A model generated the notes under the pieces. It made no database searches and was not told the origin of the DNA. It saw nothing but the letters and a program-made list of their open reading frames with translations. Positions 13,166 through 26,204 of a DNA stretch of 64,000 nucleotides are shown here, piece after piece. The translations under genes were made by a program, and so were the position numbers. This DNA is from Escherichia phage ESCO5, in sequence record NC_047776.2. One strand, 5' to 3'. Every line of letters starts with the position of its first letter. Positions within the stretch are counted from its first letter, which is position 1.

Positions 13166-13194
13166 AAAAAGCCTACCTCATTAAGTAGGTAGGC
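13166..13194 (-). terminator. rho-independent terminator
   Basis: Minus strand GCCTACCT...AGGTAGGC hairpin followed by TTTTT, between 13228 gene and 13155 start. Confidence 0.5.
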
Positions 13195-13227: not shown

Positions 13228-14106
13228 TTATTTAAGGATTGTTGCTTTGGTTAAATCTTCCATCAGACCTCGAATCTCATTGAAGCACAGAAGGACTGAA
13301 GCTTCAATACTACCTTCTTCGTCTGCAAAATATTTCGGAAAACGTAGTTTAGAAAGTTTAAACTCTTTATCAACTACAAAATCTACAACACCGTCATATT
13401 CAAGACCGATTGCAACAACATCTTTACCATCTTCTTTTAGTTCGACAGCTTTAGACTCGTATAGGGATTCTTTACTCCAAACAACAACGCCCTCGCTATC
13501 CTCCATTTTGATATAATTTCCGAGAGTAATACGATCTGCTTCGTGATTCTCCAGCAATTCACCAAAACCTTTTACAATAGCTTCTTCGTGCACACTAAAA
13601 CCTACCGAAGGGAAAGTCCCCAGGACGGAACGGAGGAAAGAAGTAATCTCTTCTGCAACCTTTTTACTTCCATTAAGAACATAAAGAAGATTCGTAGTTT
13701 TATCCAAGACAACATAGTTAGAGAAATCTTCAGGTTCTGTTTCAGGCAATAGTGCAAATTCAATATCTTCTTTCATTGCTTTGACTACTTCTTTATCGAC
13801 ATAAAACTCTTTACCTTCGCTCTCCATGTCCTGACGCATTTCTTCTAGACGTTCATTCAGAATACGTTTAACTTTCTTTTTATCTACTTTCTTCACAGAT
13901 TGACCTACATTAAGCAGTTCAAGATCTGAAAACTCTTTTACAAATTTAGAGTCATCTTCGAAACGAACAAGACCGATAGTGTGTGACTGGGAGCCTTCTG
14001 CTGTTACAAATTCCAGAGGAATATCTGTAATGCTGTTAAGGGATGCTACAGAAGCATTGTCACCAACAACCATAGGCAGAGCGGATTTAAAAGATTTTAC
14101 AAACAT
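13228..14106 (-). CDS. hypothetical protein
   Basis: 292-aa ORF, acidic. Confidence 0.45.
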   Translation of the reverse strand: MFVKSFKSALPMVVGDNASVASLNSITDIPLEFVTAEGSQSHTIGLVRFEDDSKFVKEFSDLELLNVGQSVKKVDKKKVKRILNERLEEMRQDMESEGKEFYVDKEVVKAMKEDIEFALLPETEPEDFSNYVVLDKTTNLLYVLNGSKKVAEEITSFLRSVLGTFPSVGFSVHEEAIVKGFGELLENHEADRITLGNYIKMEDSEGVVVWSKESLYESKAVELKEDGKDVVAIGLEYDGVVDFVVDKEFKLSKLRFPKYFADEEGSIEASVLLCFNEIRGLMEDLTKATILK

Positions 14107-14162: not shown

Positions 14163-14888
14163 TTACTTGTTAATAATGGCTGCAATGTTAGGTTCAATGA
14201 AACCTGACCACTTCATGATCTTACCTTTATCATCAAAGAACACATACACTTTCTGTTTTTCATTATAAACAGCATGAACACCAGTGTATGCCCCTTCTGG
14301 ACGATTGGCATTTCGTTCTTCAATTGCAGCGCATTCTTGTGCAATGGCTGAATCGATATCCGAAGTTTTCCAAGTTTTCAGCAACTGTTGTTTAGTTGGA
14401 TACTTGGAATCATTACTTTTCAATACCTCTTTAATAACTTTCTTTTCTGGATATTTTGAACGGATTAGAGTGTCACGAGACATACGCATAATACCAGCAG
14501 CCATTAGTGCCATTTGAACTGGCTCTGTAAATGTTTGTTCCAAAGCATCAAAATCAGTATACACAGTTGGAGTAAAAACATCGCCTACAGCATAGTCCAA
14601 GAAATTCATCGTATGTTCTTCACCAAAGAACATGTAGGTCAGATAACTGGATACTACAAAAATATCCGCTGCTGCATCCAATAGTTCTACATGATCGTTT
14701 ACTTTCGCGGCTGTTTCATACTCTTTAAGCTCTTCACGAACGAATCCGATTTGGGACATAAATAGCTCTTGAGTGAATTCAGGTTGTTCACCACCCCGTG
14801 CTTTAGCATTCCAATCAATCACGTGCTTCGCTGCATTTTTGAAAAATTCAGTATCGAACTTAATATCTTTAAAAAAATTCTCGATCAT
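14163..14888 (-). CDS. hypothetical protein, possible MazG-like all-alpha NTP pyrophosphohydrolase domain
   Basis: 241 aa; VREELKEYETA...ELLDAAADI resembles ExxEE...ExxD metal-binding motifs. Confidence 0.35.
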   Translation of the reverse strand: MIENFFKDIKFDTEFFKNAAKHVIDWNAKARGGEQPEFTQELFMSQIGFVREELKEYETAAKVNDHVELLDAAADIFVVSSYLTYMFFGEEHTMNFLDYAVGDVFTPTVYTDFDALEQTFTEPVQMALMAAGIMRMSRDTLIRSKYPEKKVIKEVLKSNDSKYPTKQQLLKTWKTSDIDSAIAQECAAIEERNANRPEGAYTGVHAVYNEKQKVYVFFDDKGKIMKWSGFIEPNIAAIINK

Positions 14889-14897
14889 TATAACTCC

Positions 14898-15158
14898 TTA
14901 TTTAAAATAGCTTTCTAGAAAGTTGCTAATATTTACTACAGTCTCACCCATGTAAATTCCTGCGAAACCGAAAACAAGCATACGTGGAATATTGAAATAC
15001 CATTTATCCGCTGGAAAAGATGCCAGAATTACAATAGCAATTGCTATCAGCATCATAAGAATTGTTGCTAAAATTATCATAAAAATGCCTCCAGGTATTT
15101 TGAACAATGATAAGCTAAGAAACAAGAAACTACCGCATACCCAACTCCAGACATACAT
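14898..15158 (-). CDS. hypothetical membrane protein
   Basis: 86 aa, two to three hydrophobic helices. Confidence 0.35.
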   Translation of the reverse strand: MYVWSWVCGSFLFLSLSLFKIPGGIFMIILATILMMLIAIAIVILASFPADKWYFNIPRMLVFGFAGIYMGETVVNISNFLESYFK

Positions 15159-15280
15159 GAATCAATCACAACACATACGGTTCTTTTCTTTGAATTCTTA
15201 GGAAAGTTTTCTGAAGCATTCATACAATAAAAAGAAAGCACACTGAAAATGATTAAAATGGCTAAGAACATTTTTCCTCC

Positions 15281-16408
15281 TTACTCTGCTGGTTCCCAAG
15301 TGCCTGGGATCATTTCTCGAATACGAACACCAACAGGTTTTGTTGGAATACCTTCATCTGAAAATTCTTCATACTCTATTTCAACGAACTGATTAATCAA
15401 GGTAGAAGCATTCTCTGCTTTACGATAATTGATAGTCTCATGAGCATCTTTACGCATTAAGAATTCGACTACTTTACCATTTTCCATCTCACCTGTCAAC
15501 ACTCCATCGCCATTTTTATCGCTTTTTGAATTTGTTACTTTAACTTCAAGGGTGTGGCGAGGCTTACGTTTAATAACGTCATAAGAACGTTTATCAAATT
15601 CGTAAACTCCGTGAGCATTACGATATACTACACCTTCAGCTTTCTCAAGTAAAGCTTTTTCATAGAAAGCGTCAAACTGCTCTTGGTTTTCAATATACTC
15701 TGTATGAACTACACAAATAAGCTCGTCAAGACCATAATCTTCAACTACTGCCTTAAGAGCAGCAAGAGCATCAACACGTTTTTCAAACGGTAGACCTGGA
15801 ACTGGAATATCGTATACGTAATAATTCAGCAAAGGTGTATTTGCATTATGCTTCTTCCAAGCACTGTTAATTTGTTGCAGACTAAGGACACCTAACCCAG
15901 CAAACACTTCACCATCAAGAGGATGACCAACAACTTCACTAATAAAGTTTGGAATACCTTTCCAATGAGGTGGCAGGTTATACACTTCCCCAGCTTTTGA
16001 TAAACACTCCCCTTTCATGTTAATCATAGAACGTAACCCGTTCAGTTTGTATTGTGCATAACCAGGGAACACAACCCTTTCAGGATAATCTTTATAATCC
16101 TGGCATTTCATTGGTGTGGAAGGAACATGGTTTTCAGCTTCTTCTTTTGTTTTATAATAGCCATTCTTTAACTGTTTTGTCCATTTGGCAAAAGCTTCAA
16201 GTTCAGCTTGTTCTTCCGGTGTTGTTTCATTGGAACGACCAATGTTTTTTGCTTCTGCTGTATAAGATTTTTCTGTGATCTTTCCACCTACTCTTCCATG
16301 AGCTACAGTAACAACTGCACCATCTGTATATACTGTCCACTGTTTAAGTTTTCCTTTTGAATCTTTACCATACAGCGTTTGATTTGTTTGTTGCATTAGT
16401 CCTCCCAT
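15281..16408 (-). CDS. ATP-dependent polynucleotide ligase (nucleotidyltransferase superfamily), motif I variant KxNG
   Basis: 375 aa; motif I YKLNGLR (N in place of D), motif III PLDGEVFA, later YVYD and EGVVYR motifs. Confidence 0.55.
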   Translation of the reverse strand: MGGLMQQTNQTLYGKDSKGKLKQWTVYTDGAVVTVAHGRVGGKITEKSYTAEAKNIGRSNETTPEEQAELEAFAKWTKQLKNGYYKTKEEAENHVPSTPMKCQDYKDYPERVVFPGYAQYKLNGLRSMINMKGECLSKAGEVYNLPPHWKGIPNFISEVVGHPLDGEVFAGLGVLSLQQINSAWKKHNANTPLLNYYVYDIPVPGLPFEKRVDALAALKAVVEDYGLDELICVVHTEYIENQEQFDAFYEKALLEKAEGVVYRNAHGVYEFDKRSYDVIKRKPRHTLEVKVTNSKSDKNGDGVLTGEMENGKVVEFLMRKDAHETINYRKAENASTLINQFVEIEYEEFSDEGIPTKPVGVRIREMIPGTWEPAE

Positions 16409-16617
16409 TTAAAAACTGAAATTTTCAATCTGTTACACACTTCATCCAAATCTGCGTCGAGTAACGTTGTAGATGTTGCCAACATATAATCAATGCTTGT
16501 GAAACCTTGCCCTTTGGCATAGTCAAGCATATCTTCATACATATCTTCAAGATCACCGTCATCAAAAGTAGCTAGAAAATCCTCGTCTCCGCTACGAACA
16601 TAAAATGCAGTACTCAT
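16396..16617 (-). CDS. hypothetical acidic protein
   Basis: 73-aa ORF. Confidence 0.35.
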   Translation of the reverse strand: MSTAFYVRSGDEDFLATFDDGDLEDMYEDMLDYAKGQGFTSIDYMLATSTTLLDADLDEVCNRLKISVFKWED

Positions 16618-16805
16618 TCTTCTTCATCCCAAGATTCAAAAGCACAACAATCATCGGTTTCTATAATACCAACACGTCCGCAGGTATTGCAAGTGATTTT
16701 ATCCCCGTAGAATAAATAATTTTTATCACCCTCTGTGTTTACAGTTATGTCATTACTACCACAAGGGCAAGTCAGCCAACCAACAACAACGATATCTTTT
16801 TTCAT
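16614..16805 (-). CDS. hypothetical zinc-ribbon protein
   Basis: 63 aa; CPCG...CNTCG. Confidence 0.4.
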   Translation of the reverse strand: MKKDIVVVGWLTCPCGSNDITVNTEGDKNYLFYGDKITCNTCGRVGIIETDDCCAFESWDEEE

Positions 16806-16814
16806 AATCCCTCC

Positions 16815-17141
16815 TTAAGCGTTCAGTTCGTTGTTGAGTTCGTAAATCTCTTCTTGAAGAGCATCAATCTCTTCCTCCAAACGGGAGATCTCTTCTTTTA
16901 GATATACCATTTCGGACTCTTTCTCTTCTAATTCATTTTCAAATTTTACTTTATTCGCCTCATTTTCATAATGCAGTTCAGCGTAATCATCACGCATTTG
17001 TTCAATAAGATGAATCAGAGACAAGATATAATTGTCTCCCGTTTCATCACGCCACTCTTCACCGTGACGGAGAACGGTAATTCGTCCAGTATCTTCATCT
17101 AAAATTGTCTCATATTTACGATCATCTGTATAAATCTGCAT
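16815..17141 (-). CDS. hypothetical coiled-coil protein
   Basis: 108 aa; C-terminal heptad-like ELEEKESEMVYLKEEISRLEEEIDALQEEIYELNNEL. Confidence 0.4.
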   Translation of the reverse strand: MQIYTDDRKYETILDEDTGRITVLRHGEEWRDETGDNYILSLIHLIEQMRDDYAELHYENEANKVKFENELEEKESEMVYLKEEISRLEEEIDALQEEIYELNNELNA

Positions 17142-17150
17142 TATTTCTCC

Positions 17151-17555
17151 TTATTGAAGTTTAAGTGAACCACGAAGACGTTTCTCTTGCTGATCACGGA
17201 TATATTGTGGAACCTCGTGAATTGAATCATTACCGTGCCTATTTTCAACAATTAAAGAGATAACTTGATAACCAAACTCTTCAGCAAGAGCTAGATAAGG
17301 TTTAAGTTCTTTCTCTGTGGTTGAAGTATTAGAAACAATAATCTTGTTAAGATTAGATGCCATAGCATCACGAACAATACCCTGACACCATGCGTGTGCT
17401 TTACCTACATTTTCTGGCTTCCAATCGTAAACACCACTCTCTGTGTAATGATATTGATCTGCCTCACAGATAGGCCAATAACCTTCAGAAATAATTTCTG
17501 CTACTGTAGATTTACCAGCACCTGAAACGCCACGTAAAATGATAAGTTGTTTCAT
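17151..17555 (-). CDS. polynucleotide 5'-kinase (T4 Pnk kinase-domain-like P-loop protein)
   Basis: 134 aa; Walker A GVSGAGKST near N-terminus, IIVSNTSTT like T4 Pnk; no HAD phosphatase domain attached. Confidence 0.6.
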   Translation of the reverse strand: MKQLIILRGVSGAGKSTVAEIISEGYWPICEADQYHYTESGVYDWKPENVGKAHAWCQGIVRDAMASNLNKIIVSNTSTTEKELKPYLALAEEFGYQVISLIVENRHGNDSIHEVPQYIRDQQEKRLRGSLKLQ

Positions 17556-18488
17556 TTATCCTCCAAAAAAGTTTTCGATTTTTTCACGTCGCTCTTGCTG
17601 ATTTAAAGCAGCCCATTGAGTCTTCGTAAAATTATTTCGAATCCATTCTAACAAAGCGTAATATTCTTCGTCAACAATTTGTTTGGCATTTTTCGGATTA
17701 TCCCAAATCAGATCCCACTTTTTATCTCCACCGCGCATAAGAAACTTCTTAGTAAGATAGTGTGGTGATTTAATTTTTAAAAGTAAGTTGAACGGATAGT
17801 TTGTTTCACGAACTACAAACCCTTCGTGTTTACAATGTTTAGACATTTCAACAACATCTGAAAACTTAACCATTGGATAAACTTCAGGACGCTTAAATTT
17901 GGTGACAGAAGCAATTCCATCAAGAGCACCTTCAGGTAACATAAAACTTGTCCCATCAGGATTTTGAATTCTGGCACCAATTAAGTATGCACCTGGTTCT
18001 TCTTCGACAATATGCGGATCAGAAGGATCACAGATTTCAAAAAGGAAAGTTGCTTTTGCACTCTCTGTCCATTTGATGAAATGTTCTATGTCATCACACT
18101 CTGAAACAATACGATTCTTTGCAATACTTGCAAAATCTGATTCAAGGCTTCCTGTTGTCGATACAATAAGTTGACCTTTATATACACCTACAGAGGCCAT
18201 AAAACCATTTACTTTACGAACCACATCTACAAGTTCATCCAATGGTAGATCTGTGCCATTCTCAAAACGATTAAAAATCTTAGTGAAAGGCCAAATAACA
18301 ACATTGTCATCAGCATCAACAACGATTCCGCGACATTCTAGAAGACGAGAATCAATGCTCCATAAGTTATCCCAGAAAACTTTGTTCTTATACTTAAGAA
18401 CAGATAGACCAGAATACTCTCCTTCTTTATATGTTTTCTTATGAACTAAACCTTTTTCAACCAAATCGTCGCAATTAAATTTAGTCAC
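17556..18488 (-). CDS. RNA ligase, T4 Rnl1 (RnlA) family
   Basis: 310 aa; LECRGIVVDADDNVV...FNRFEN resembles T4 Rnl1 ALECRGIMF...FFNLNEN; motif I RKVNGFMASV (KxNG). Confidence 0.7.
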   Translation of the reverse strand: MTKFNCDDLVEKGLVHKKTYKEGEYSGLSVLKYKNKVFWDNLWSIDSRLLECRGIVVDADDNVVIWPFTKIFNRFENGTDLPLDELVDVVRKVNGFMASVGVYKGQLIVSTTGSLESDFASIAKNRIVSECDDIEHFIKWTESAKATFLFEICDPSDPHIVEEEPGAYLIGARIQNPDGTSFMLPEGALDGIASVTKFKRPEVYPMVKFSDVVEMSKHCKHEGFVVRETNYPFNLLLKIKSPHYLTKKFLMRGGDKKWDLIWDNPKNAKQIVDEEYYALLEWIRNNFTKTQWAALNQQERREKIENFFGG

Positions 18489-18489
18489 A

Positions 18490-19041
18490 TTACTCTCCTT
18501 TGATTATTTTGTGATGGTCTACAGTCACGATATCTCGTTTACTCATCATAGAAATTATCTCATCAAAATGCAAGATTTTTCCGTGTGCATCCCAACCCAC
18601 ATCTAACATTTTACCATAAGCTTCATCAGGGAAAGATCCGTGGGAATGCCCGTGTAGCATGATTGATCCACGACCTTGTTTATTCCAGGAGGCCATAGGG
18701 TAATGACTTAAGACGAAGAACAGCTTCTGATATTTCACTTCGTCATAATACACCACTTCACCATACTCTGCAAGCACTTCTCGGTGTTTGCTGTAGTCAT
18801 GGTTCCCAACACAGTAGGTGATATCTCCTTGGAGACGAGAAGCAATTTTACGGGTATCTTCTTCAGTTCCGAAACAGAAGTCGCCCAAATGCCACATCTT
18901 AACACCAGGAGTAGTAGCACATTTGTTCCATGCTTCGATCAAGGCTTCTGTCATGTGGTCCATATCTTCCCACGGACGATATTCAGGAGCAAACTCTCGA
19001 ATACGTTTATGCATAAAATGCAAATCGCTTGTAATAAACAT
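18490..19041 (-). CDS. calcineurin-like metallophosphoesterase (putative RNA 3'-end healing phosphoesterase)
   Basis: 183 aa; binuclear-metal motifs SDLHFMH, HLGDFCFG, CVGNHDY, LHGHSHG. Confidence 0.7.
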   Translation of the reverse strand: MFITSDLHFMHKRIREFAPEYRPWEDMDHMTEALIEAWNKCATTPGVKMWHLGDFCFGTEEDTRKIASRLQGDITYCVGNHDYSKHREVLAEYGEVVYYDEVKYQKLFFVLSHYPMASWNKQGRGSIMLHGHSHGSFPDEAYGKMLDVGWDAHGKILHFDEIISMMSKRDIVTVDHHKIIKGE

Positions 19042-19397
19042 TAGTATAATCCCTCGCTAAATAATTCATGGTCGTGACCATTACGCTCATGGTCGATCTG
19101 GTCAGCATTTTCCGCGATGATGTAAGCATCCGCACGACTCCACCAATTGTAATACTGATCGATAAAGCCTTGATTATCTGGTGTGCACAAAGTTTTGTTG
19201 ATTACACCTGCTTCTTTCAACACGTTTAACTGTGCATATAGTACAGGATTTGCATGTCGAACACAAGGAATAATTAACTCTTCACCATTATTCAAAATAT
19301 ACTTATTTGCAGCACAGACGATAACACGTTGCGCATAATGACCCTCACCCATCCAGGTAAGAGGTTGGTAACAAATATTGTTTTCAATACCACTCAT
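19041..19397 (-). CDS. hypothetical protein
   Basis: 118-aa ORF directly upstream of the RNA repair operon. Confidence 0.4.
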   Translation of the reverse strand: MSGIENNICYQPLTWMGEGHYAQRVIVCAANKYILNNGEELIIPCVRHANPVLYAQLNVLKEAGVINKTLCTPDNQGFIDQYYNWWSRADAYIIAENADQIDHERNGHDHELFSEGLY

Positions 19398-19556
19398 TGT
19401 TTCCTAATCCTCCTCTCTTAAGTTATCCTCGAAAAAACTAGTGTCTGGAAGTAAAAGATCATTACTTGTGTCGGGCCAATCCTCTTCTTCTCGGTAGATA
19501 AAGTAACCTTCGTCCTCTTCTTGTTCCGACCAAACCGAATGATGCATGTTCTCTCC

Positions 19557-19901
19557 TTAGTAGTGCACACGAATCATTTTAATACCATAACGCAGCATAG
19601 ATTCTTTTGCAAGCATGAATTTATCCCCAGCGGCGGGATTAGAAGTATGCACGAAAATGGTGGGTGAACCAAAGCAAGGTTTACCAAACGCCAGAAGTTC
19701 TTCCAGGTACAGGAAAACATCATACCCATCTTGGTCTGACTCCATACCTAAATCATTGTCAAAAGACCACTCGGTTACTCTTCGATACAGTTTAGCAGGA
19801 TCGTTGAGAAAGGCCATAGCTTCTTGTGACGTTTTAAACCAAATTGCATCCTCCTGTCCATAGTCGGCTGGGTTCCGCATATCATCTATCCAAACTTTCA
19901 T
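19557..19901 (-). CDS. hypothetical protein
   Basis: 114-aa ORF. Confidence 0.4.
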   Translation of the reverse strand: MKVWIDDMRNPADYGQEDAIWFKTSQEAMAFLNDPAKLYRRVTEWSFDNDLGMESDQDGYDVFLYLEELLAFGKPCFGSPTIFVHTSNPAAGDKFMLAKESMLRYGIKMIRVHY

Positions 19902-19911
19902 ATAACCTCCT

Positions 19912-20382
19912 TTAAGCTGGCATGATTAAAAAAGAACTTTCCACTTCAAAATGCCAATCATCAACAAGCCCTGATTCCCAATCCTTCTCTTCATGGAAAG
20001 AGCAAATCCAACGGTACATACCTGGCGGTGTATTCTCAACATCTTCTGGCAACCCATAATCCAAAGCTGTCTTACCGTTCTCTGTAAAACTAGGATGGAG
20101 ATTAGGAGCCTTCAGTACAGAAACCATACCTCCAACATCCACAGCTACGATCCACTCTGTCATGTATGGGCTGTCATATTGAGGCTCATCAGAACCTACC
20201 TCAACAGCCTCTGTGCGTAAGATGATAATAGCCTGCTCTGTGATTGGGGCTTTGACAATATAACCGTGGTCCTCAAAAAGATCGATAACCTCGAACTCAT
20301 CGCCGTTTTCGACACCATAACTCTTATTCAAAGAGATAAACTTCGGGTTATCATCGTAAGCTTTAGTTACTTTAATTCTCAT
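19912..20382 (-). CDS. hypothetical protein
   Basis: 156-aa ORF. Confidence 0.4.
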   Translation of the reverse strand: MRIKVTKAYDDNPKFISLNKSYGVENGDEFEVIDLFEDHGYIVKAPITEQAIIILRTEAVEVGSDEPQYDSPYMTEWIVAVDVGGMVSVLKAPNLHPSFTENGKTALDYGLPEDVENTPPGMYRWICSFHEEKDWESGLVDDWHFEVESSFLIMPA

Positions 20383-20603
20383 TTTTCCTCCTTCACTTTA
20401 ACCTCAAATTCTACAGGATTACCCTCAATGTAAAAACACTGATACTCTGCCTTATCATCATCATCACGAGGCCAAGTTACCAAGGAGTTATAGCAATCTT
20501 CTGGTGCTTTGAAGATGGTTTTAGTCTCCACAGTAACATTCCCATTAAGTGTTGCCAATACCACCCACCCAGCTACAGGGATCATAGTGCCTCCACTTTC
20601 CAC
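20379..20603 (-). CDS. hypothetical protein
   Basis: 74-aa ORF. Confidence 0.35.
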   Translation of the reverse strand: MESGGTMIPVAGWVVLATLNGNVTVETKTIFKAPEDCYNSLVTWPRDDDDKAEYQCFYIEGNPVEFEVKVKEEK

Positions 20604-20764: not shown

Positions 20765-21042
20765 TTTGCATTCCTCTTGTTGTTGATAACATCCATAGCA
20801 GTATATGGTTTATTAGTGCCATGATACTCCAGAATCATTGGAGATCCTTCTTGCACTACTTCAAAGATACCATAAACAGAACTTTCAGCAAATACCATTT
20901 GCTTCGTACCTTCATCGTTTACAACGAGAGAAAACTTCTTGCCTGTCCCGTTGAGGATCTCGTATTTCTTGCCAGCCGTGAATAATCCAGAGTACCACTC
21001 ATTATCTGTTGCTTTTACACACTTCAGGAAAGTCTTGATCAT
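20761..21042 (-). CDS. hypothetical protein
   Basis: 93-aa ORF. Confidence 0.4.
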   Translation of the reverse strand: MIKTFLKCVKATDNEWYSGLFTAGKKYEILNGTGKKFSLVVNDEGTKQMVFAESSVYGIFEVVQEGSPMILEYHGTNKPYTAMDVINNKRNAK

Positions 21043-21607
21043 TTCTTTTTATCTCCTCTTTTAATCTATCTACTATACGAACATCATAGACGCCCTCTGT
21101 ATACATGTCAATAACTTCTTCAAGATAAACTTTTTTAGCTTTTCTGTAAGCTTCTTTTGCTGCCTCTTCTGTAGAAAAACTTCCAAGATAGAAGCCCTTA
21201 CCGAACTTACGGATGCTCGCTTGGTAGACCTTATCTCTCTTGTGATATGTAACACCCCTATAAGATGTCGAACCCATAAGTGCAAAATTCACATACTCTG
21301 GTATAAAGACACACGTGCTTGGTGAATAAACTTTAGAATCGGAAAGAAAATCCTTATCTAAAACTTTACCTTCCCAAGATTGACTCTCCATCCAGTTTTT
21401 GAAGTTAGAGAAGACCAACCATTCATCACAAACTTGAGAATTTTTGTATGCTGGCATCCTTGCCAACTGCTTCTCACAGTAACACCTACGCAACATATCC
21501 GTCCATCTCTCGTAATAAGGGCATGTCTTCCTTTTACCATCTTCTCCCCAAAAAGTAACTGGAACTTTTGAATCATTTATTCCTTTTCCGAACACTAGTT
21601 TTTTCAT
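21002..21607 (-). mobile_element. AP2-domain homing endonuclease-like gene (paralog of 4064-4723)
   Basis: 201 aa; YRGVTYHKRDKVYQASIRKFGKGFYLGSFSTEEAAKEAY AP2-like; shares VY(S/C)P..C.F(I/V)PEYVN segment with 4064-4723. Confidence 0.5.
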
Positions 21608-24192: not shown

Positions 24193-24267
24193 GGCCCTGT
24201 AGCTCAATGGGAGAGCTGTCGGCTCATAACCGATAGGTAGCTGGATCGAAACCAGCCAGGGCCACCA
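24193..24267 (+). tRNA. tRNA with CAT anticodon (Met or Ile2)
   Basis: GGCCCTG acceptor pairs CAGGGCC; anticodon loop CTCATAA; encoded CCA. Confidence 0.7.
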
Positions 24268-24269
24268 AC

Positions 24270-24344
24270 GTCTTTATGGTGTAATGGATAGCACAGGAGT
24301 CTTCTAAACTCTTAGTCAAGGTTCGATTCCTTGTAAAGACACCA
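24270..24344 (+). tRNA. tRNA-Arg (TCT)
   Basis: Acceptor GTCTTTA/TAAAGAC; anticodon arm GGAGT-CTTCTAA-ACTCT; T-loop TTCGATT; CCA. Confidence 0.65.
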
Positions 24345-24540
24345 GAACATTTTAACATGAATTAGCTCAAGTGATTTGAACCCACTACTGATCATGGTGG
24401 CAGAGAATGAGGCAAGTATGTCAGACATTATAAACAAAGGCCACGGTTATATTAGAAGACATAAATGCTCGAAGAGCACCGTTCGTGGAGAACGGGGGTT
24501 GGTGGAGTCACCATTCATGGTAAAATGTTTTAAAAAACTA

Positions 24541-24569
24541 TTGACAACAAACATTATTTTATGTTAGAT
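24541..24569 (+). promoter_or_regulatory. sigma70-like promoter
   Basis: TTGACA, 17-nt spacer, TTAGAT; upstream of tRNA-Ser. Confidence 0.4.
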
Positions 24570-24578
24570 TATAAGTAT

Positions 24579-24669
24579 GGAAGGGCAAATCGACGTGGCG
24601 ACGAAAACGGTCTTGAAAACCGCCGAGCTTGAAAGAGCCTTGGGAGTTCGACTCTCCCTCCTTCCGCCA
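24579..24669 (+). tRNA. tRNA-Ser (TGA), type II
   Basis: Acceptor GGAAGGG/TCCTTCC, loop CTTGAAA, long variable arm; close to E. coli Ser(UGA) arms. Confidence 0.65.
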
Positions 24670-24674
24670 GATTA

Positions 24675-24760
24675 GGTAGATTGGTGAAATGGTAGCCACG
24701 ACAGTTTGCTAAACTGTAGTCGGAAACGGCGTGTAGGTTCGAGTCCTACATCTACCGCCA
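24675..24760 (+). tRNA. tRNA-Ser (GCT), type II
   Basis: Acceptor GGTAGAT/ATCTACC, anticodon loop TTGCTAA, long variable arm, CCA. Confidence 0.6.
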
Positions 24761-24890
24761 AGTTCTTTTTAATGTAGCTTACTTTAGCAGAGTAAATCTT
24801 CGGCAAGTGGCGGTAACCACTTTACCGATACCTCATAGTTAGTGGTGCGAACACTGGCTATTTTAAAAAGAATTTAAATATTAGTATTTA

Positions 24891-24978
24891 GGTGAGTTAA
24901 TTCCGTAGGGGTAGCGGGGCAGACTGTAAATCTGTTATCATTGCGATTCGGGTGGTTCGACTCCATCACTCACCACCA
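24891..24978 (+). tRNA. tRNA-Tyr (GTA), type II
   Basis: Acceptor GGTGAGT/ACTCACC, anticodon arm CAGA-CTGTAAA-TCTG, long variable arm, CCA. Confidence 0.6.
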
Positions 24979-24984
24979 AATTAA

Positions 24985-25070
24985 GATGAGTTGGCTGAAT
25001 GGTTTAAGCGGCGGACTGTTAATCCGTGTTCGAAAGAACAATATAGGTTCGAATCCTATACTCATCGCCA
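24985..25070 (+). tRNA. tRNA-Asn (GTT) with an unusually long variable arm
   Basis: Acceptor GATGAGT/ACTCATC, discriminator G; anticodon arm GCGGA-CTGTTAA-TCCGT matches E. coli tRNA-Asn; ~15-nt GTTCGAAAGAAC hairpin before T-arm; 86 nt. Confidence 0.5.
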
Positions 25071-25080
25071 GAATTATGGA

Positions 25081-25158
25081 CTTGTAGAGTTAAGGTAAAC
25101 CCCCAGTCGCCAATAGGCTTCTGGAATTGCAGGTATCGAATCCTGCCGAGTCCCAGCA
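25081..25158 (+). ncRNA. tRNA-like element, anticodon arm unresolved
   Basis: Acceptor GGACTTG/CGAGTCC and T-arm GCAGG-TATCGAAT-CCTGC present; central region does not fold into canonical D/anticodon arms by eye; no CCA. Confidence 0.3.
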
Positions 25159-25160
25159 TT

Positions 25161-25235
25161 GCTCCTATAGTATAATGGCTATTACAACGGTTTTGTAATC
25201 CGTGGATCTCTGTTCGATTCAGTGTGGGAGCACCA
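25161..25235 (+). tRNA. tRNA-Thr (TGT) (putative)
   Basis: Acceptor GCTCCTA/TGGGAGC, D-arm like E. coli Gly, anticodon loop TTTGTAA, CCA. Confidence 0.5.
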
Positions 25236-25508
25236 ACACAACATTAAGAGCACTGTGATTGATCGTCGTATCCTGTGCACAAGGTCTGCTCGAAAGACAG
25301 TGTTCTTAGTATTGTGTTGATCACAAAAAGAGTCACCCGAAACTTGACCGGAGTAGGGTTGGATGGGGCAAAATGAGAAGCGGCTCTCCCATCGACAGCA
25401 ACGAAGAATAATATTTGACTTTTGTTTTGTATTATTTTAAGTTAGCTTACCGAACGTAGGGCTAGTCACCCAACGGGATACTCGTCACTGTCCCACTCAA
25501 TAAAACTA

Positions 25509-25538
25509 TTGACAACCAATAGTAAAATGTAGTATAGT
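25509..25538 (+). promoter_or_regulatory. sigma70-like promoter
   Basis: TTGACA, 18-nt spacer, TATAGT; upstream of tRNA-Gly. Confidence 0.45.
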
Positions 25539-25549
25539 AAAGATGTAGG

Positions 25550-25623
25550 GCGTTCTTGGTGTAGCGGTAGCATTCCGTCCTTCCAAGTCGGCGGCACGAG
25601 TTCGATCCTCGTAGAACGCTCCA
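25550..25623 (+). tRNA. tRNA-Gly (TCC)
   Basis: Acceptor GCGTTCT/AGAACGC, anticodon loop CTTCCAA, T-loop TTCGATC, CCA. Confidence 0.6.
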
Positions 25624-25721
25624 AATTATTTAATAAAGGGTTGCCAGAAAACTTTCTCTTTTACTCATGGTTTTCTCCTTCTCTCACACTTCTTCTGGTT
25701 GCCCTTCATTAAATGATTTAT

Positions 25722-25797
25722 TGGTTTGTAGTGTAGTCCGGTAGCACACGACACTTTGACTGTCGTAGGTTTGGTTCAAATCCAGACAGACCAGCCA
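25722..25797 (+). tRNA. tRNA-Gln (TTG)
   Basis: T1-A72 start TGGTTTG/CAGACCA like E. coli Gln, anticodon arm CGACA-CTTTGAC-TGTCG, CCA. Confidence 0.65.
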
Positions 25798-25870
25798 TAT
25801 AACAAAGGTGAGTCACTACCTTAAGTGTGAAGTTAAAAACGAGGAGCCGCCGAACACTTTCTTTTGCGGT

Positions 25871-25947
25871 GTACCTTTAGAATGTTATCACGGGACGTAG
25901 CACAGCTTGGTAGTGCGCTCGCTTTGGGAGCGAGAGGTCGAGTGTTC
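25871..25947 (+). tRNA. tRNA-Pro (TGG)
   Basis: Acceptor CGGGACG/CGTCCCG, anticodon arm CTCGC-TTTGGGA-GCGAG, CCA. Confidence 0.7.
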
Positions 25948-25953
25948 GAATCA

Positions 25954-26027
25954 CTCCGTCCCGACCAATTAAATGTTTCGTAGTTCAATGGTAGAACCCA
26001 CGACTGATAATCGTGAGACACAAGTTC
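25954..26027 (+). tRNA. tRNA-Ile (GAT)
   Basis: Acceptor TGTTTCG/CGAAACA, anticodon arm CACGA-CTGATAA-TCGTG, CCA. Confidence 0.65.
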
Positions 26028-26028
26028 G

Positions 26029-26098
26029 ATTCTTGTCGAAACAACCAGTTTCCCGTTAGACTTACAGGATAAGAGATCCACAATTTATTGTGACGCTG
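26029..26098 (+). ncRNA. tRNA-like element, anticodon arm unresolved
   Basis: T-arm GCTGG-TTCGAAT-CCAGC and acceptor-like TCCCGT/ACGGGA; interior has a CACAAT-TT-ATTGTG hairpin instead of a 7-nt anticodon loop; no CCA. Confidence 0.3.
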
Positions 26099-26125
26099 GT
26101 TCGAATCCAGCACGGGATACATAAT

Positions 26126-26204
26126 AGCGGGATAGAGGAGTCTGGTCGTCCTCGCCAGTTTCATATGCTGGAGATCATTGGTTCAAATCCAATTCCCGCC
26201 TCCA
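26126..26204 (+). tRNA. second tRNA with CAT anticodon (Met or Ile2)
   Basis: Anticodon arm CCAGT-TTCATAT-GCTGG, T-loop TTCAAAT, 3' TCCCGCC-T-CCA; possible 1-72 A/C mismatch. Confidence 0.55.

Follow-up and report, generated by a model that had tools for sequence, protein, structure and literature searches.

Bacterial defences that cleave tRNA or other RNA are common and include PrrC, RloC, PARIS, retron-linked and HEPN nucleases, and Cas13. Phage T4 counters the PrrC anticodon nuclease by tRNA repair with Pnkp and Rnl1, to our knowledge the only phage repair answer worked out by experiment. In yeast, the T4 pair can rescue a trl1-delta strain and bypass Tpt1. The bacterial Pnkp/Hen1 and Pnkp1-Rnl-Hen1 systems (complex PDB 4xrp) combine a P-loop kinase, a binuclear metallophosphoesterase and an ATP-dependent RNA ligase, and bacterial Pnkp unites kinase, phosphatase and ligase in a single polypeptide. 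The metallophosphoesterase of Clostridium thermocellum Pnkp (CthPnkp) is a documented 2',3'-cyclic phosphodiesterase, and both this enzyme and lambda phosphatase have been shown to heal 2',3'-cyclic phosphate ends (PMC2190708). The fungal and plant system of the tRNA ligase Trl1 and Tpt1 is characterized by a 2H cyclic phosphodiesterase and a strict requirement for a 2'-PO4 (PMC10946426). Among phages, a sirtuin-centred RNA-repair neighbourhood was described by Iyer, Burroughs, Anantharaman and Aravind in 2022 for Escherichia phage V5 and Proteus phage Mydo, so that an RNA-repair module in V5-like phages is not new as a prediction (PMC9503650). The idea of repair by a kinase and a ligase has also been published for a Pakpunavirus (PMC12846349). 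The literature searched contained no assay of any member of the ligase, kinase or metallophosphoesterase subfamilies discussed below, and no biochemistry or genetics on the module.

Here, we analyse a 64 kb stretch of the genome of Escherichia phage ESCO5, a phAPEC8-like phage of E. coli (hereafter the window). The stretch matches Escherichia phage vB_EcoM_REC (Phapecoctavirus) with 100% identity. The window carries a trio of genes for a metallophosphoesterase (MPE), an RNA ligase and a P-loop kinase. We propose that the trio probably mends RNA by a heal-and-seal pathway divided among three proteins, with a function like that of T4 Pnkp and Rnl1. Common to the T4 pair and the trio are 3' end healing, 5' phosphorylation and ATP-dependent sealing, which in the trio are predicted, and both sets are phage early genes. 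The ligase and T4 Rnl1 belong to one family, share their catalytic residues and are closest in fold, and the kinase agrees with T4 Pnk in fold and catalytic Asp. T4 Pnkp has a fused HAD phosphatase, whereas the trio kinase lacks one and the separate MPE is the candidate phosphatase. The ligase is also shorter than the 374-residue T4 Rnl1 and has a much shorter C-terminal domain, its motif I is KxNG instead of KEDG, a Thr takes the place of T4 Lys119, and the kinase is without an equivalent of T4 Arg38. The genes of the trio abut, whereas in a T4-like genome about 2.4 kb separates rnlA from pseT.

The trio shares with the bacterial systems the set of P-loop kinase, binuclear metallophosphoesterase and ATP-dependent RNA ligase, spread over three genes instead of one polypeptide, and the trio kinase has its top fold match in the CthPnkp kinase. 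No Hen1-type methyltransferase domain was found among the neighbours scanned, a set that covers the small ORFs in part, and no 2H or Tpt1/KptA domain among the proteins scanned. The window and the V5/Mydo neighbourhood have five families in common, namely a T4-like tRNA ligase, cREC, a nucleotide kinase, MazG and a calcineurin-like phosphoesterase, all encoded within 14163-19901 on one strand. A V5/Mydo-type sirtuin has no counterpart in the 64 kb window, which contains no match to Sir2, NAMPT, PRS or HD phosphohydrolase; the Sir2-like gene of the genome lies outside it, about 31 kb from the ligase (OM386667.1 19991-20791), and the MazG-like gene is 2.3 kb downstream. Protein identities between the V5-like phage Murica and the window are 35-55%. 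The window has MPE, ligase and kinase side by side on a single strand, whereas in Murica the MPE and kinase genes are divergent from ligase-cREC-Sir2-MazG. The phosphoesterase, called 'occasional' in the V5/Mydo description (PMC9503650), is the most constant ligase partner in our survey of 80 loci (74/80), in which sirtuin, cREC and MazG are lineage-specific.

Gene arrangement and neighbours

The first-pass annotation proposed three consecutive minus-strand genes, and the MPE, ligase and kinase reading frames lie in this order at exactly the coordinates that it had assigned to them (Table 1). The MPE start is reached via a TAATG overlap with the end of the upstream gene, the MPE-ligase junction reads TAA-T-GTG, the ligase-kinase junction reads GGAGGATAA-ATG, and Shine-Dalgarno sequences are present at the tight junctions of the trio. 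The genes are under purifying selection, with dN/dS values of 0.064 (MPE), 0.085 (ligase) and 0.149 (kinase) against a relative 88-94% identical. All predicted catalytic residues of the three proteins are intact.

Table 1 Features of the window discussed in the text.
Feature	Position	Strand	Description
MazG-like all-alpha NTP pyrophosphatase	14163-14888	minus	241 aa; Pfam PRA-PH 2.7e-6, residues 34-85
Intrinsic terminator	13171-13194	minus	8-pair stem (5 GC), then T run; closes the long minus-strand unit that holds the trio
DNA ligase, ATP-dependent	15281-16408		PF01068 6e-9; PHROG 114 2.4e-74
P-loop kinase, polynucleotide-kinase-like	17151-17555	minus	134 aa
Rnl1-family RNA ligase	17556-18488	minus	310 aa, GTG start
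Metallophosphoesterase (MPE)	18490-19041	minus	183 aa
T4_Y16D-family early protein	19041-19397	minus	118 aa; 1 nt overlap with MPE start, co-transcribed
cREC (cyclic-phosphate-processing receiver-like) protein	19557-19901	minus	114 aa; PF20274 3.9e-17
tRNA array	24193-26204	plus	10 tRNAs

The description of the trio as an operon holds in that the three genes abut, but they do not form a self-contained operon and lie inside a minus-strand unit of about 10 kb. The only strong terminator of this unit is read from 13194 to 13171, and a terminator is annotated at the equivalent site in phage Schickermooser. The number of promoter-like sites, 37 against an expected 33.6, is no higher than chance and gives no signal of a discrete operon. 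The neighbours of the trio are DNA replication and repair genes, including a DNA ligase, RdgC and exonucleases, and PADLOC defence models gave no meaningful match.

The large tRNA array reported in the first-pass annotation is present. The second KxNG ligase, which together with the trio was suggested to provide two layers of tRNA protection, was rejected as an RNA ligase. Its profile matches are to phage ATP-dependent DNA ligase and GenBank annotates it as DNA ligase; it does not constitute a second layer. The two genes of 19041-19901, suggested to be accessory components, have to be told apart: the role is credible for cREC, whereas the T4_Y16D-family gene has no link to RNA repair. Residues D6, D7, D48, D50, T86, S87 and K94 of cREC are conserved in 11 relatives, and the gene adjoins the ligase in Murica and in contig L093. 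The protein is probably an accessory enzyme of RNA repair, a function predicted for its family (PMC7824862, PMC9503650). Homologues of the ORF between cREC and the MPE carry PF26092 T4_Y16D, and a T4-like Yersinia phage has the gene between motA and asiA. Murica, PaP1 and Brizo have no copy of it near the ligase; given its family, its generic early-gene contexts and its presence in only 3 of the 80 loci, it was rejected as an accessory or a hidden sirtuin. The MazG-like protein is homologous to the Murica 'nucleotide pyrophosphohydrolase', which is placed after ligase-cREC-Sir2. Its gene occurs in 14 of the 80 ligase loci, exclusively in the enterobacterial group, and it is possibly a peripheral member of the module.

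Predicted activities of the three proteins

The ligase matches the Pfam family PF09511 RNA_lig_T4_1 (8.7e-15; 55.6 bits against a cut-off of 28.3; model positions 1-227) and PHROG 562 (4.9e-70), in agreement with the RNA ligase assignment of the first-pass annotation. The motifs on which that assignment was based are present as E51-CRGIVV, F72-NRFEN and K92-VNG95. Ten residues, R53, K70, F72, K92, G95, E151, E222, G223, K238 and K240, are at least 98% conserved among 82 relatives and invariant in comparison with T4-like Rnl1, where they correspond to R54, K75, F77, K99, G102, E159, E227, G228, K240 and K242 (T4 numbering). The nucleotidyltransferase residues of T4 Rnl1 are reportedly essential according to mutagenesis in the Shuman laboratory. 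The position of T4 Lys119 is occupied by Thr112, inside a conserved S-T-T-G motif. Among ligase families, Rnl1 is the closest in fold, with Trl1-LIG as near as T4 Rnl1 itself; the sequence profile matched T4 Rnl1 (4e-10) and did not detect fungal or plant Trl1. The C-terminal domain is predicted to be helical (residues 242-307) and comprises about 65 residues, compared with about 120 in the T4-like domain. The profile alignment with T4 ends at motif V, and the C-terminal domain is not alignable by sequence. In T4 Rnl1, the C-terminal domain is the source of tRNA specificity. Since the ligase scores 24.8 bits against the T4 RnlA equivalog TIGR02308, below the cut-off of 242, it is a member of the family and not a T4 RnlA orthologue. 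Its sequence indicates that it is most likely a short form of the Rnl1-family ATP-dependent RNA ligases.

The kinase matches Pfam AAA_33 (3.5e-10), PHROG 2071 (4e-56) and the 'polynucleotide kinase' family PHROG 505 (1e-7). Its P-loop, G9-VSGAGKS16, is intact, and this loop and D33, which aligns with D35 of T4 Pnk, are 100% conserved in 69 relatives. Arg38 of T4 Pnk binds the phosphate on the 3' side of the terminal nucleoside. The corresponding residue is His36, and H, Q, F or R occupies this position across the family, which has invariant residues of its own (R8, Y43, Y87 and H113). As the first-pass annotation had it, the protein resembles the kinase domain of T4 Pnk without the HAD phosphatase, and the chain stops after the kinase domain. 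A sequence search of the PDB returned only P-loop noise, and a fold search was therefore used. The AF2 model (pLDDT 90.4) has its best matches in CthPnkp, T4 Pnk, Pnkp1, the Mucorales tRNA kinase and PSTK. The top 20 Foldseek matches are CthPnkp kinase (9e-7, TMq 0.76), T4 Pnk (TMq 0.75-0.80) and the Mucorales tRNA kinase, and adenylate and gluconate kinases rank lower, at a TMq of about 0.5. The predicted structure is thus nearest to polynucleotide and tRNA kinases, not to small-molecule kinases. Judging by the model, the protein is probably a minimal P-loop polynucleotide 5'-kinase-like enzyme.

The MPE matches Pfam Metallophos (24.9 bits, cut-off 21.5) and PHROG 547 (6.5e-56). The motifs of binuclear metallophosphoesterases, DxH, GD, GNH[D/E], H and GHxH, are complete and 98-100% conserved; the previously noted ones are D6-L-H8, G53-D54, G79-N-H-D82 and G131-H-S-H134. 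The metal-binding and catalytic set of D6, H8, D54, N80, H81, H113, H132 and H134, together with H11 and R22, is 98-100% conserved in 75 relatives. By sequence, Aq_1665 (1xm7; profile E 5.7e-22) is the sole relative with a solved structure. The identification of the MPE as PdeM was rejected (16.8 bits, cut-off 150). A CthPnkp-like phosphatase was likewise rejected, as the family profile found neither CthPnkp nor lambda phosphatase in the PDB at E up to 1. The likeness to bacterial Pnkp drawn in the first-pass annotation is limited to the superfamily level, because the MPE belongs to an Aq_1665/COG4186-like family outside the CthPnkp/lambda-phosphatase clade. By analogy, and in view of the gene linkage and fusions described below, the MPE may be a 3' end-healing enzyme with 2',3'-cyclic phosphodiesterase and phosphomonoesterase activities.

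Conserved linkage and alternative explanations

The linkage of the three genes was surveyed in 80 IMG/VR viral loci with a ligase relative 37-88% identical. Within 10 kb of the ligase, an MPE relative is encoded in 74 and a kinase in 68 of the loci; the MPE is within 3 kb in 68, and at most 300 bp separate the ligase from the MPE in 42 and from the kinase in 40. Nearly all of these MPE and kinase genes are on the ligase strand and usually directly adjacent, in the order MPE-ligase-kinase (33 loci) or kinase-ligase-MPE (21 loci). The trio is found in Phapecoctavirus, Vequintavirus, Pakpunavirus, Thalassavirus and Saclayvirus, and conservation of the linkage extends to at least five phage lineages. 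NAMPT and PRS occur within 10 kb in 41 and 30 loci, and within 300 bp in one and two loci, respectively. Sir2 (11/80), cREC (10/80) and MazG are confined to enterobacterial loci. The MPE family extends to 1408 phage records, compared with 751 for the ligase, and to 11,113 clusters at 50% identity.

No fusion of MPE, ligase or kinase was found among the 80 loci. A wider search of representatives identified an MPE, 53% identical to that of the window, fused in frame to an RNA ligase of another family (PF09414). The contig is syntenic with the window and encodes cREC, the MPE::ligase fusion, an Rnl1-type ligase, a kinase, DNA ligase, MazG and RdgC. Its Rnl1-type ligase is 26% identical to the one in the window, whereas the MPE and kinase are 52-57% identical, which indicates that the ligase slot was replaced and the partners were retained. 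Some other MPE relatives carry HAD_SAK_2, the 'Swiss Army Knife RNA repair' HAD domain; the contig of one such fusion, P0391, is too short to provide gene context.

An unlikely alternative is the NAD-dependent, fungal-type repair of Iyer et al. (2022). Here, cREC or the MPE would open the cyclic phosphate to a 2'-phosphate, the ligase would seal the 3'-OH,2'-PO4 end, the phage sirtuin would strip the junction 2'-phosphate with NAD+, as Tpt1/KptA does, and cREC, MazG and MPE would clear the ADP-ribose cyclic phosphate by-product. The published form of this model concerns V5/Mydo-type neighbourhoods (PMC9503650), Murica has the gene order ligase-cREC-Sir2-MazG, and cREC and MazG lie within the transcription unit of the trio; however, Sir2, cREC and MazG occur in 11, 10 and 14 of the 80 loci, whereas MPE and kinase are near-universal. 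The phage genome does contain a Sir2 gene, but about 31 kb from the ligase, and the ligase is present in 175 Pseudomonas phage records, yet Sir2 has fewer than 10 matches in Pseudomonas. The fold of the ligase is equally near to the 2'-PO4-dependent Trl1-LIG, and its KxNG motif I is as in Trl1 (PMC10946426), but its profile finds T4 Rnl1 and no Trl1. The 2'-PO4-binding arginines of Chaetomium Trl1 are R334 and R337, and K248 and R252, both conserved, are candidate equivalents in the ligase. The proximity of NAMPT and PRS in 41 and 30 loci would fit an NAD route. We know of no sirtuin with 2'-phosphotransferase activity, which counts against it. It is similarly doubtful that the trio is the conserved core of a widespread phage RNA-repair system that cREC, MazG and the sirtuin extend into an NAD+-consuming pathway in enterobacterial myoviruses. 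If this were true, the core system would be spread over about 750 phage records from five phage lineages or more, the sirtuin would remove the junction 2'-phosphate, a chemistry that sirtuins are not known to perform, and the frequent linkage to NAD salvage would be explained by the demand for NAD+.

We regard it as quite improbable that the ligase and kinase repair RNA alone, and that the MPE merely shares the early-gene cluster and does a separate job, such as the hydrolysis of cyclic or ADP-ribose-derived nucleotide signals or other nucleotides. NAMPT and PRS frequently lie in the vicinity of the trio, but at distances of up to 300 bp from the ligase they are found in one and two loci, compared with 42 for the MPE. 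The breadth of the MPE family in comparison with the ligase favours a separate role, as does the Kayvirus MPE, which lies 3.5 kb from a PRS and NAMPT pair and has neither ligase nor kinase within 5 kb; the syntenic relative with MPE and RNA ligase fused in frame and the MPE and HAD_SAK_2 fusions elsewhere speak for a shared one. Aq_1665 is without a known function and the Adele paper credits repair to kinase and ligases only, yet a phosphatase-less kinase requires a 3' end-healing partner to mend cyclic-phosphate breaks. The trio has genes of DNA replication and repair as neighbours, which makes 5'-OH or 3'-phosphate nicks in DNA conceivable substrates during phage genome replication, recombination and repair, and the T4 Pnk and CthPnkp kinases (fold matches 1rrc and 4mde) act on DNA ends in vitro too; we consider this very unlikely. 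We give hardly any credence to a main role of the ligase homologue in tail-fibre attachment, the second activity of T4 gp63. PHROG 562 and many GenBank records bear the name 'RNA ligase and tail fiber protein attachment catalyst', but this name is inherited from T4 gp63, the adenylyltransferase active site is conserved in full, and the gene lies with the kinase and phosphoesterase in an early block of nucleic-acid enzymes, not among tail genes.

Proposed repair pathway and its implications

We hypothesize that the substrate of the heal-and-seal pathway is RNA, tRNA being the most plausible, in which a metal-independent host ribonuclease has made breaks with 2',3'-cyclic phosphate and 5'-OH termini, and that repair takes place early in infection. 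The MPE would open and then remove the cyclic phosphate to restore a 3'-OH, and cREC, encoded 0.5 kb upstream, may assist this step. The kinase would phosphorylate the 5'-OH using its P-loop and Asp33, as its fold and residues suggest. The ligase would adenylylate itself on Lys92, activate the 5'-phosphate and seal the break, a step that we infer because the Rnl1 active site is fully conserved. A separate MPE of a different fold would replace the HAD phosphatase. The wide distribution of the MPE family and its position beside NAD-salvage genes in Kayvirus are points against such a pathway, as are the lack of a specific similarity of the MPE to the CthPnkp and lambda phosphatases, the missing equivalents of Arg38 and Lys119, a C-terminal ligase domain about half the T4 length, and the DNA replication and repair genes around the trio.

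The likely payoff of the pathway is resistance to tRNA- or RNA-cleaving host defences, and the likeness to T4 makes counter-defence against anticodon nucleases, as the first-pass annotation proposed, plausible. GenBank already names the genes of the trio; because the prediction is already in the literature, the value of the locus is that of a clean, testable case and not of a surprise. Many phages of therapeutic type that infect E. coli, Klebsiella, Pseudomonas, Acinetobacter and Vibrio have the trio or close variants of it. If the trio heals and seals RNA, its compact RNA ligase and kinase would be new tools for laboratory work, the large Aq_1665-like phosphoesterase family would gain a function, and part of the resistance of these phages to RNA-cleaving defences would be explained.

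Organisation of the gene trio and its surroundings

The metallophosphoesterase (MPE), ligase and kinase genes are packed head to tail, and ORF calling reproduced exactly the positions and minus strand assigned to them in the first-pass annotation. The MPE start is overlapped by the TAA of the upstream gene (TAATG). The MPE end runs into the ligase start as TAA-T-GTG, and the ligase end into the kinase start as GGAGGATAA-ATG. The trio lies within a minus-strand block of roughly 10 kb, which ends at a strong terminator (13194-13171) and contains promoter-like matches at chance level. Region 16800-20400 is 100% identical in phage vB_EcoM_REC (Phapecoctavirus, Stephanstirmvirinae) and is present at at least 80% identity in about 120 phage records. 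Since dN/dS values against an 88-94% identical relative are 0.064 (MPE), 0.085 (ligase) and 0.149 (kinase), the three are real, constrained genes. The database also has 'Campylobacter phage' records (B15, C14, C15, C7 and C9) that share 99-100% identity with phAPEC8-like or V5-like phages of E. coli, which suggests mislabelled hosts or contaminant sequences.

Features of the trio region in the window
Feature	Position	Strand	Remarks
tRNA genes (ten)	24193-26204	opposite to trio	
AP2 ORF	21002-21607	-	201 aa; AP2 DNA-binding domain, Pfam 1.3e-7
cREC ORF	19557-19901	-	PF20274, 3.9e-17; upstream of trio
T4_Y16D-family ORF	19041-19397	-	upstream of trio
MPE gene	18490-19041	-	ORF, 183 aa
Ligase gene	17556-18488	-	ORF, 310 aa, GTG start
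Kinase gene	17151-17555	-	ORF, 134 aa
Coiled-coil ORF	16815-17141		108 aa
Phage DNA ligase	15281-16408		downstream of trio
MazG-like protein	14163-14888	-	downstream of trio
RdgC	13228-14106		downstream of trio

The two ORFs upstream of MPE had been proposed as possible accessory components. This is credible for the cyclic-phosphate-processing receiver-like domain (cREC), which matches its Pfam family and has conserved acidic active-site residues, but not for the T4_Y16D-family ORF: in a T4-like phage this gene lies between motA and asiA, a context in which no linkage to RNA repair was seen. The expected tRNA array is present, and the supposed second KxNG ligase is the phage DNA ligase. The pyrophosphatase domain of the MazG-like protein is confined to residues 34-85; the remaining ~150 residues have no Pfam match, yet are conserved in phage Murica and the related contig L093. 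The AP2 ORF is present in vB_EcoM_REC but has no counterpart at this site in the near-identical phage Schickermooser, and looks like a mobile homing-endonuclease-type insertion. The labels in record OM386667.1 of the cREC gene ('putative RNA ligase and tail attachment protein'), the coiled-coil ORF ('DNA polymerase I') and the T4_Y16D-family ORF ('anti-restriction nuclease') look like annotation errors.

Predicted activities of the three proteins

The ligase matches the full Pfam model RNA_lig_T4_1 (8.7e-15), in agreement with its earlier assignment as an RNA ligase. Of the solved ligases, a profile of 40 relatives matched T4 Rnl1 alone, at 4e-10 over the nucleotidyltransferase domain. Residues aligned with T4 R54, K75, F77, K99, G102, E159, E227, G228, K240 and K242, which are essential in T4 Rnl1, show no variation or at least 98% conservation among 82 relatives. 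The ligase differs from T4 Rnl1 in its length (310 versus 374 aa), its helical C-terminal domain of only about 65 residues, its motif I (KVNG instead of KEDG) and the replacement of Lys119 by Thr112, and its score for T4 RnlA falls well short of the NCBIfam equivalog threshold. These differences indicate that it belongs to a distinct short subfamily within the Rnl1 family, with 751 phage records. The KVNG form of motif I is that of Trl1 (PMC10946426).

The kinase is matched by AAA_33 (3.5e-10) and more weakly by the PHROG 'polynucleotide kinase' family. Its P-loop is kept, as is Asp33, which aligns with Asp35, the catalytic residue of T4 Pnk. T4 Pnk Arg38 has no equivalent, and R8, Y43, Y87 and H113 are family-specific invariant residues. 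The predicted structure (pLDDT 90.4) best matches the Clostridium thermocellum Pnkp kinase and T4 Pnk (TMq 0.75-0.80), followed by Pnkp1 of the Pnkp1-Rnl-Hen1 complex, a Mucorales tRNA kinase and PSTK. The phosphatase domain is absent, as the first-pass annotation had noted in likening the protein to the T4 Pnk kinase domain.

MPE contains every metallophosphoesterase motif, with 98-100% conservation among 75 relatives. By sequence, its only solved relative is the uncharacterised Aquifex protein Aq_1665, and no specific relationship to the CthPnkp or lambda phosphatases was found. When 1.8 billion representative proteins were searched with MPE, 11,113 related clusters emerged. Of the relatives P0468 and P0387, one (496 aa) is interrupted in the GHxH motif by about 300 residues that resemble an intein or homing endonuclease; in the other, a HAD_SAK_2 domain is inserted after GHSHG and before the C-terminal DVGWD segment.

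A 524-aa protein (L093 6001-7575; JGI 3300004634 contig Ga0066906_10000109) consists of an MPE part, 53% identical to that of the window, fused in frame to a PF09414 RNA ligase, a different family from the Rnl1-type ligase. This contig of 58 kb encodes cREC, MPE::ligase, Rnl1-type ligase, kinase, DNA ligase, MazG and RdgC, in synteny with the window; its Rnl1-type ligase is only 26% identical to that of the window, and its MPE and kinase 52-57%. The L093 module therefore includes two different RNA ligases. In two other relatives, MPE is combined with a 'Swiss Army Knife RNA repair' HAD domain. A counterpoint to these fusions is that the MPE family is spread about twice as widely as the ligase and occurs away from ligase and kinase in Kayvirus.

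Linkage across related loci

Vequintavirus Murica, Pakpunavirus PaP1, T5-like Vibrio phage Brizo and Acinetobacter phage phiAbaA1 each carry the trio proteins together; in Streptomyces phages, a long Rnl1 is found with a T4-type Pnkp instead. We searched all stop-to-stop ORFs by HMM in 80 IMG/VR loci with ligases 37-88% identical; these loci were drawn from a pattern-based scan and do not form an unbiased sample.

Loci with each gene near the ligase, among the 80 of this sample
Gene	Within 10 kb	Within 3 kb	Within 300 bp
MPE	74	68	42
Kinase	68	64	40
NAMPT	41	17	1
PRS	30	25	2
MazG	14	2	0
Sir2	11	11	0
cREC	10	10	7

MPE and kinase share the ligase strand in nearly all of these loci, in the order MPE-ligase-kinase (33) or kinase-ligase-MPE (21). 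tRNA genes lie within 10 kb in 48. The genes for cREC, Sir2 and MazG are restricted to the enterobacterial V5/phAPEC8-like group. A PRS-like and NAMPT-like pair for NAD salvage is found within 10 kb of the trio in 30-41 of the 80 loci and was not found in the 64-kb window; the related loci covered are L012-L091, L004, L005, L007 and L092. In a Staphylococcus Kayvirus, an MPE homologue lies 3.5 kb from such a pair, with no ligase or kinase nearby.

Proposed repair pathway

The best-supported reading is that the trio forms a three-protein heal-and-seal pathway for RNA with 2',3'-cyclic phosphate and 5'-OH ends. As judged from linkage, fusions, folds and residues, MPE would heal the 3' end, the kinase would phosphorylate the 5' end, and the Rnl1-type ligase would seal the break via a Lys92-AMP intermediate. 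CthPnkp and lambda phosphatase, metallophosphoesterases hydrolysing 2',3'-cyclic phosphates, provide a precedent for the MPE step (PMC2190708). tRNA is the most plausible substrate, given the grouping of the ligase with the two tRNA-ligase families and the T4 precedent (PMC10946426), although the short C-terminal domain of the ligase makes any prediction of specificity tentative.

An NAD-dependent scheme proposed by Iyer et al. (PMC9503650) is the chief rival: in it, a sirtuin removes a junction 2'-phosphate, and cREC and MazG clear by-products. It is possible for the enterobacterial group; V5-like phages have Sir2 two genes beyond the ligase. As a core mechanism it is unlikely, because sirtuin, cREC and MazG are missing from most trio-bearing loci and the sirtuin is unlinked in this phage: none was found in the 64-kb window, and the Sir2-like gene of the genome (OM386667.1 19991-20791) is ~31 kb from the ligase and ~13.7 kb before the window start, in the minus-strand gene block of the trio but at its far end.

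GenBank already names the trio 'putative polynucleotide kinase', 'putative RNA ligase' and 'putative phosphoesterase', and a 2025 Pakpunavirus paper proposed tRNA repair for the homologous kinase and ligase, remarking on the missing phosphatase domain (PMC12846349). Given these, the prediction of Iyer et al. and a literature search that found no experimental test of the module, the trio counts as a rearranged member of a module that is predicted but uncharacterised. Our conclusions on it draw on sequence, predicted structure and gene context. They add that the constant partners of the ligase are MPE and kinase, that the NAD-related genes are lineage-specific additions, and that gene fusions tie the MPE family to RNA ligation.
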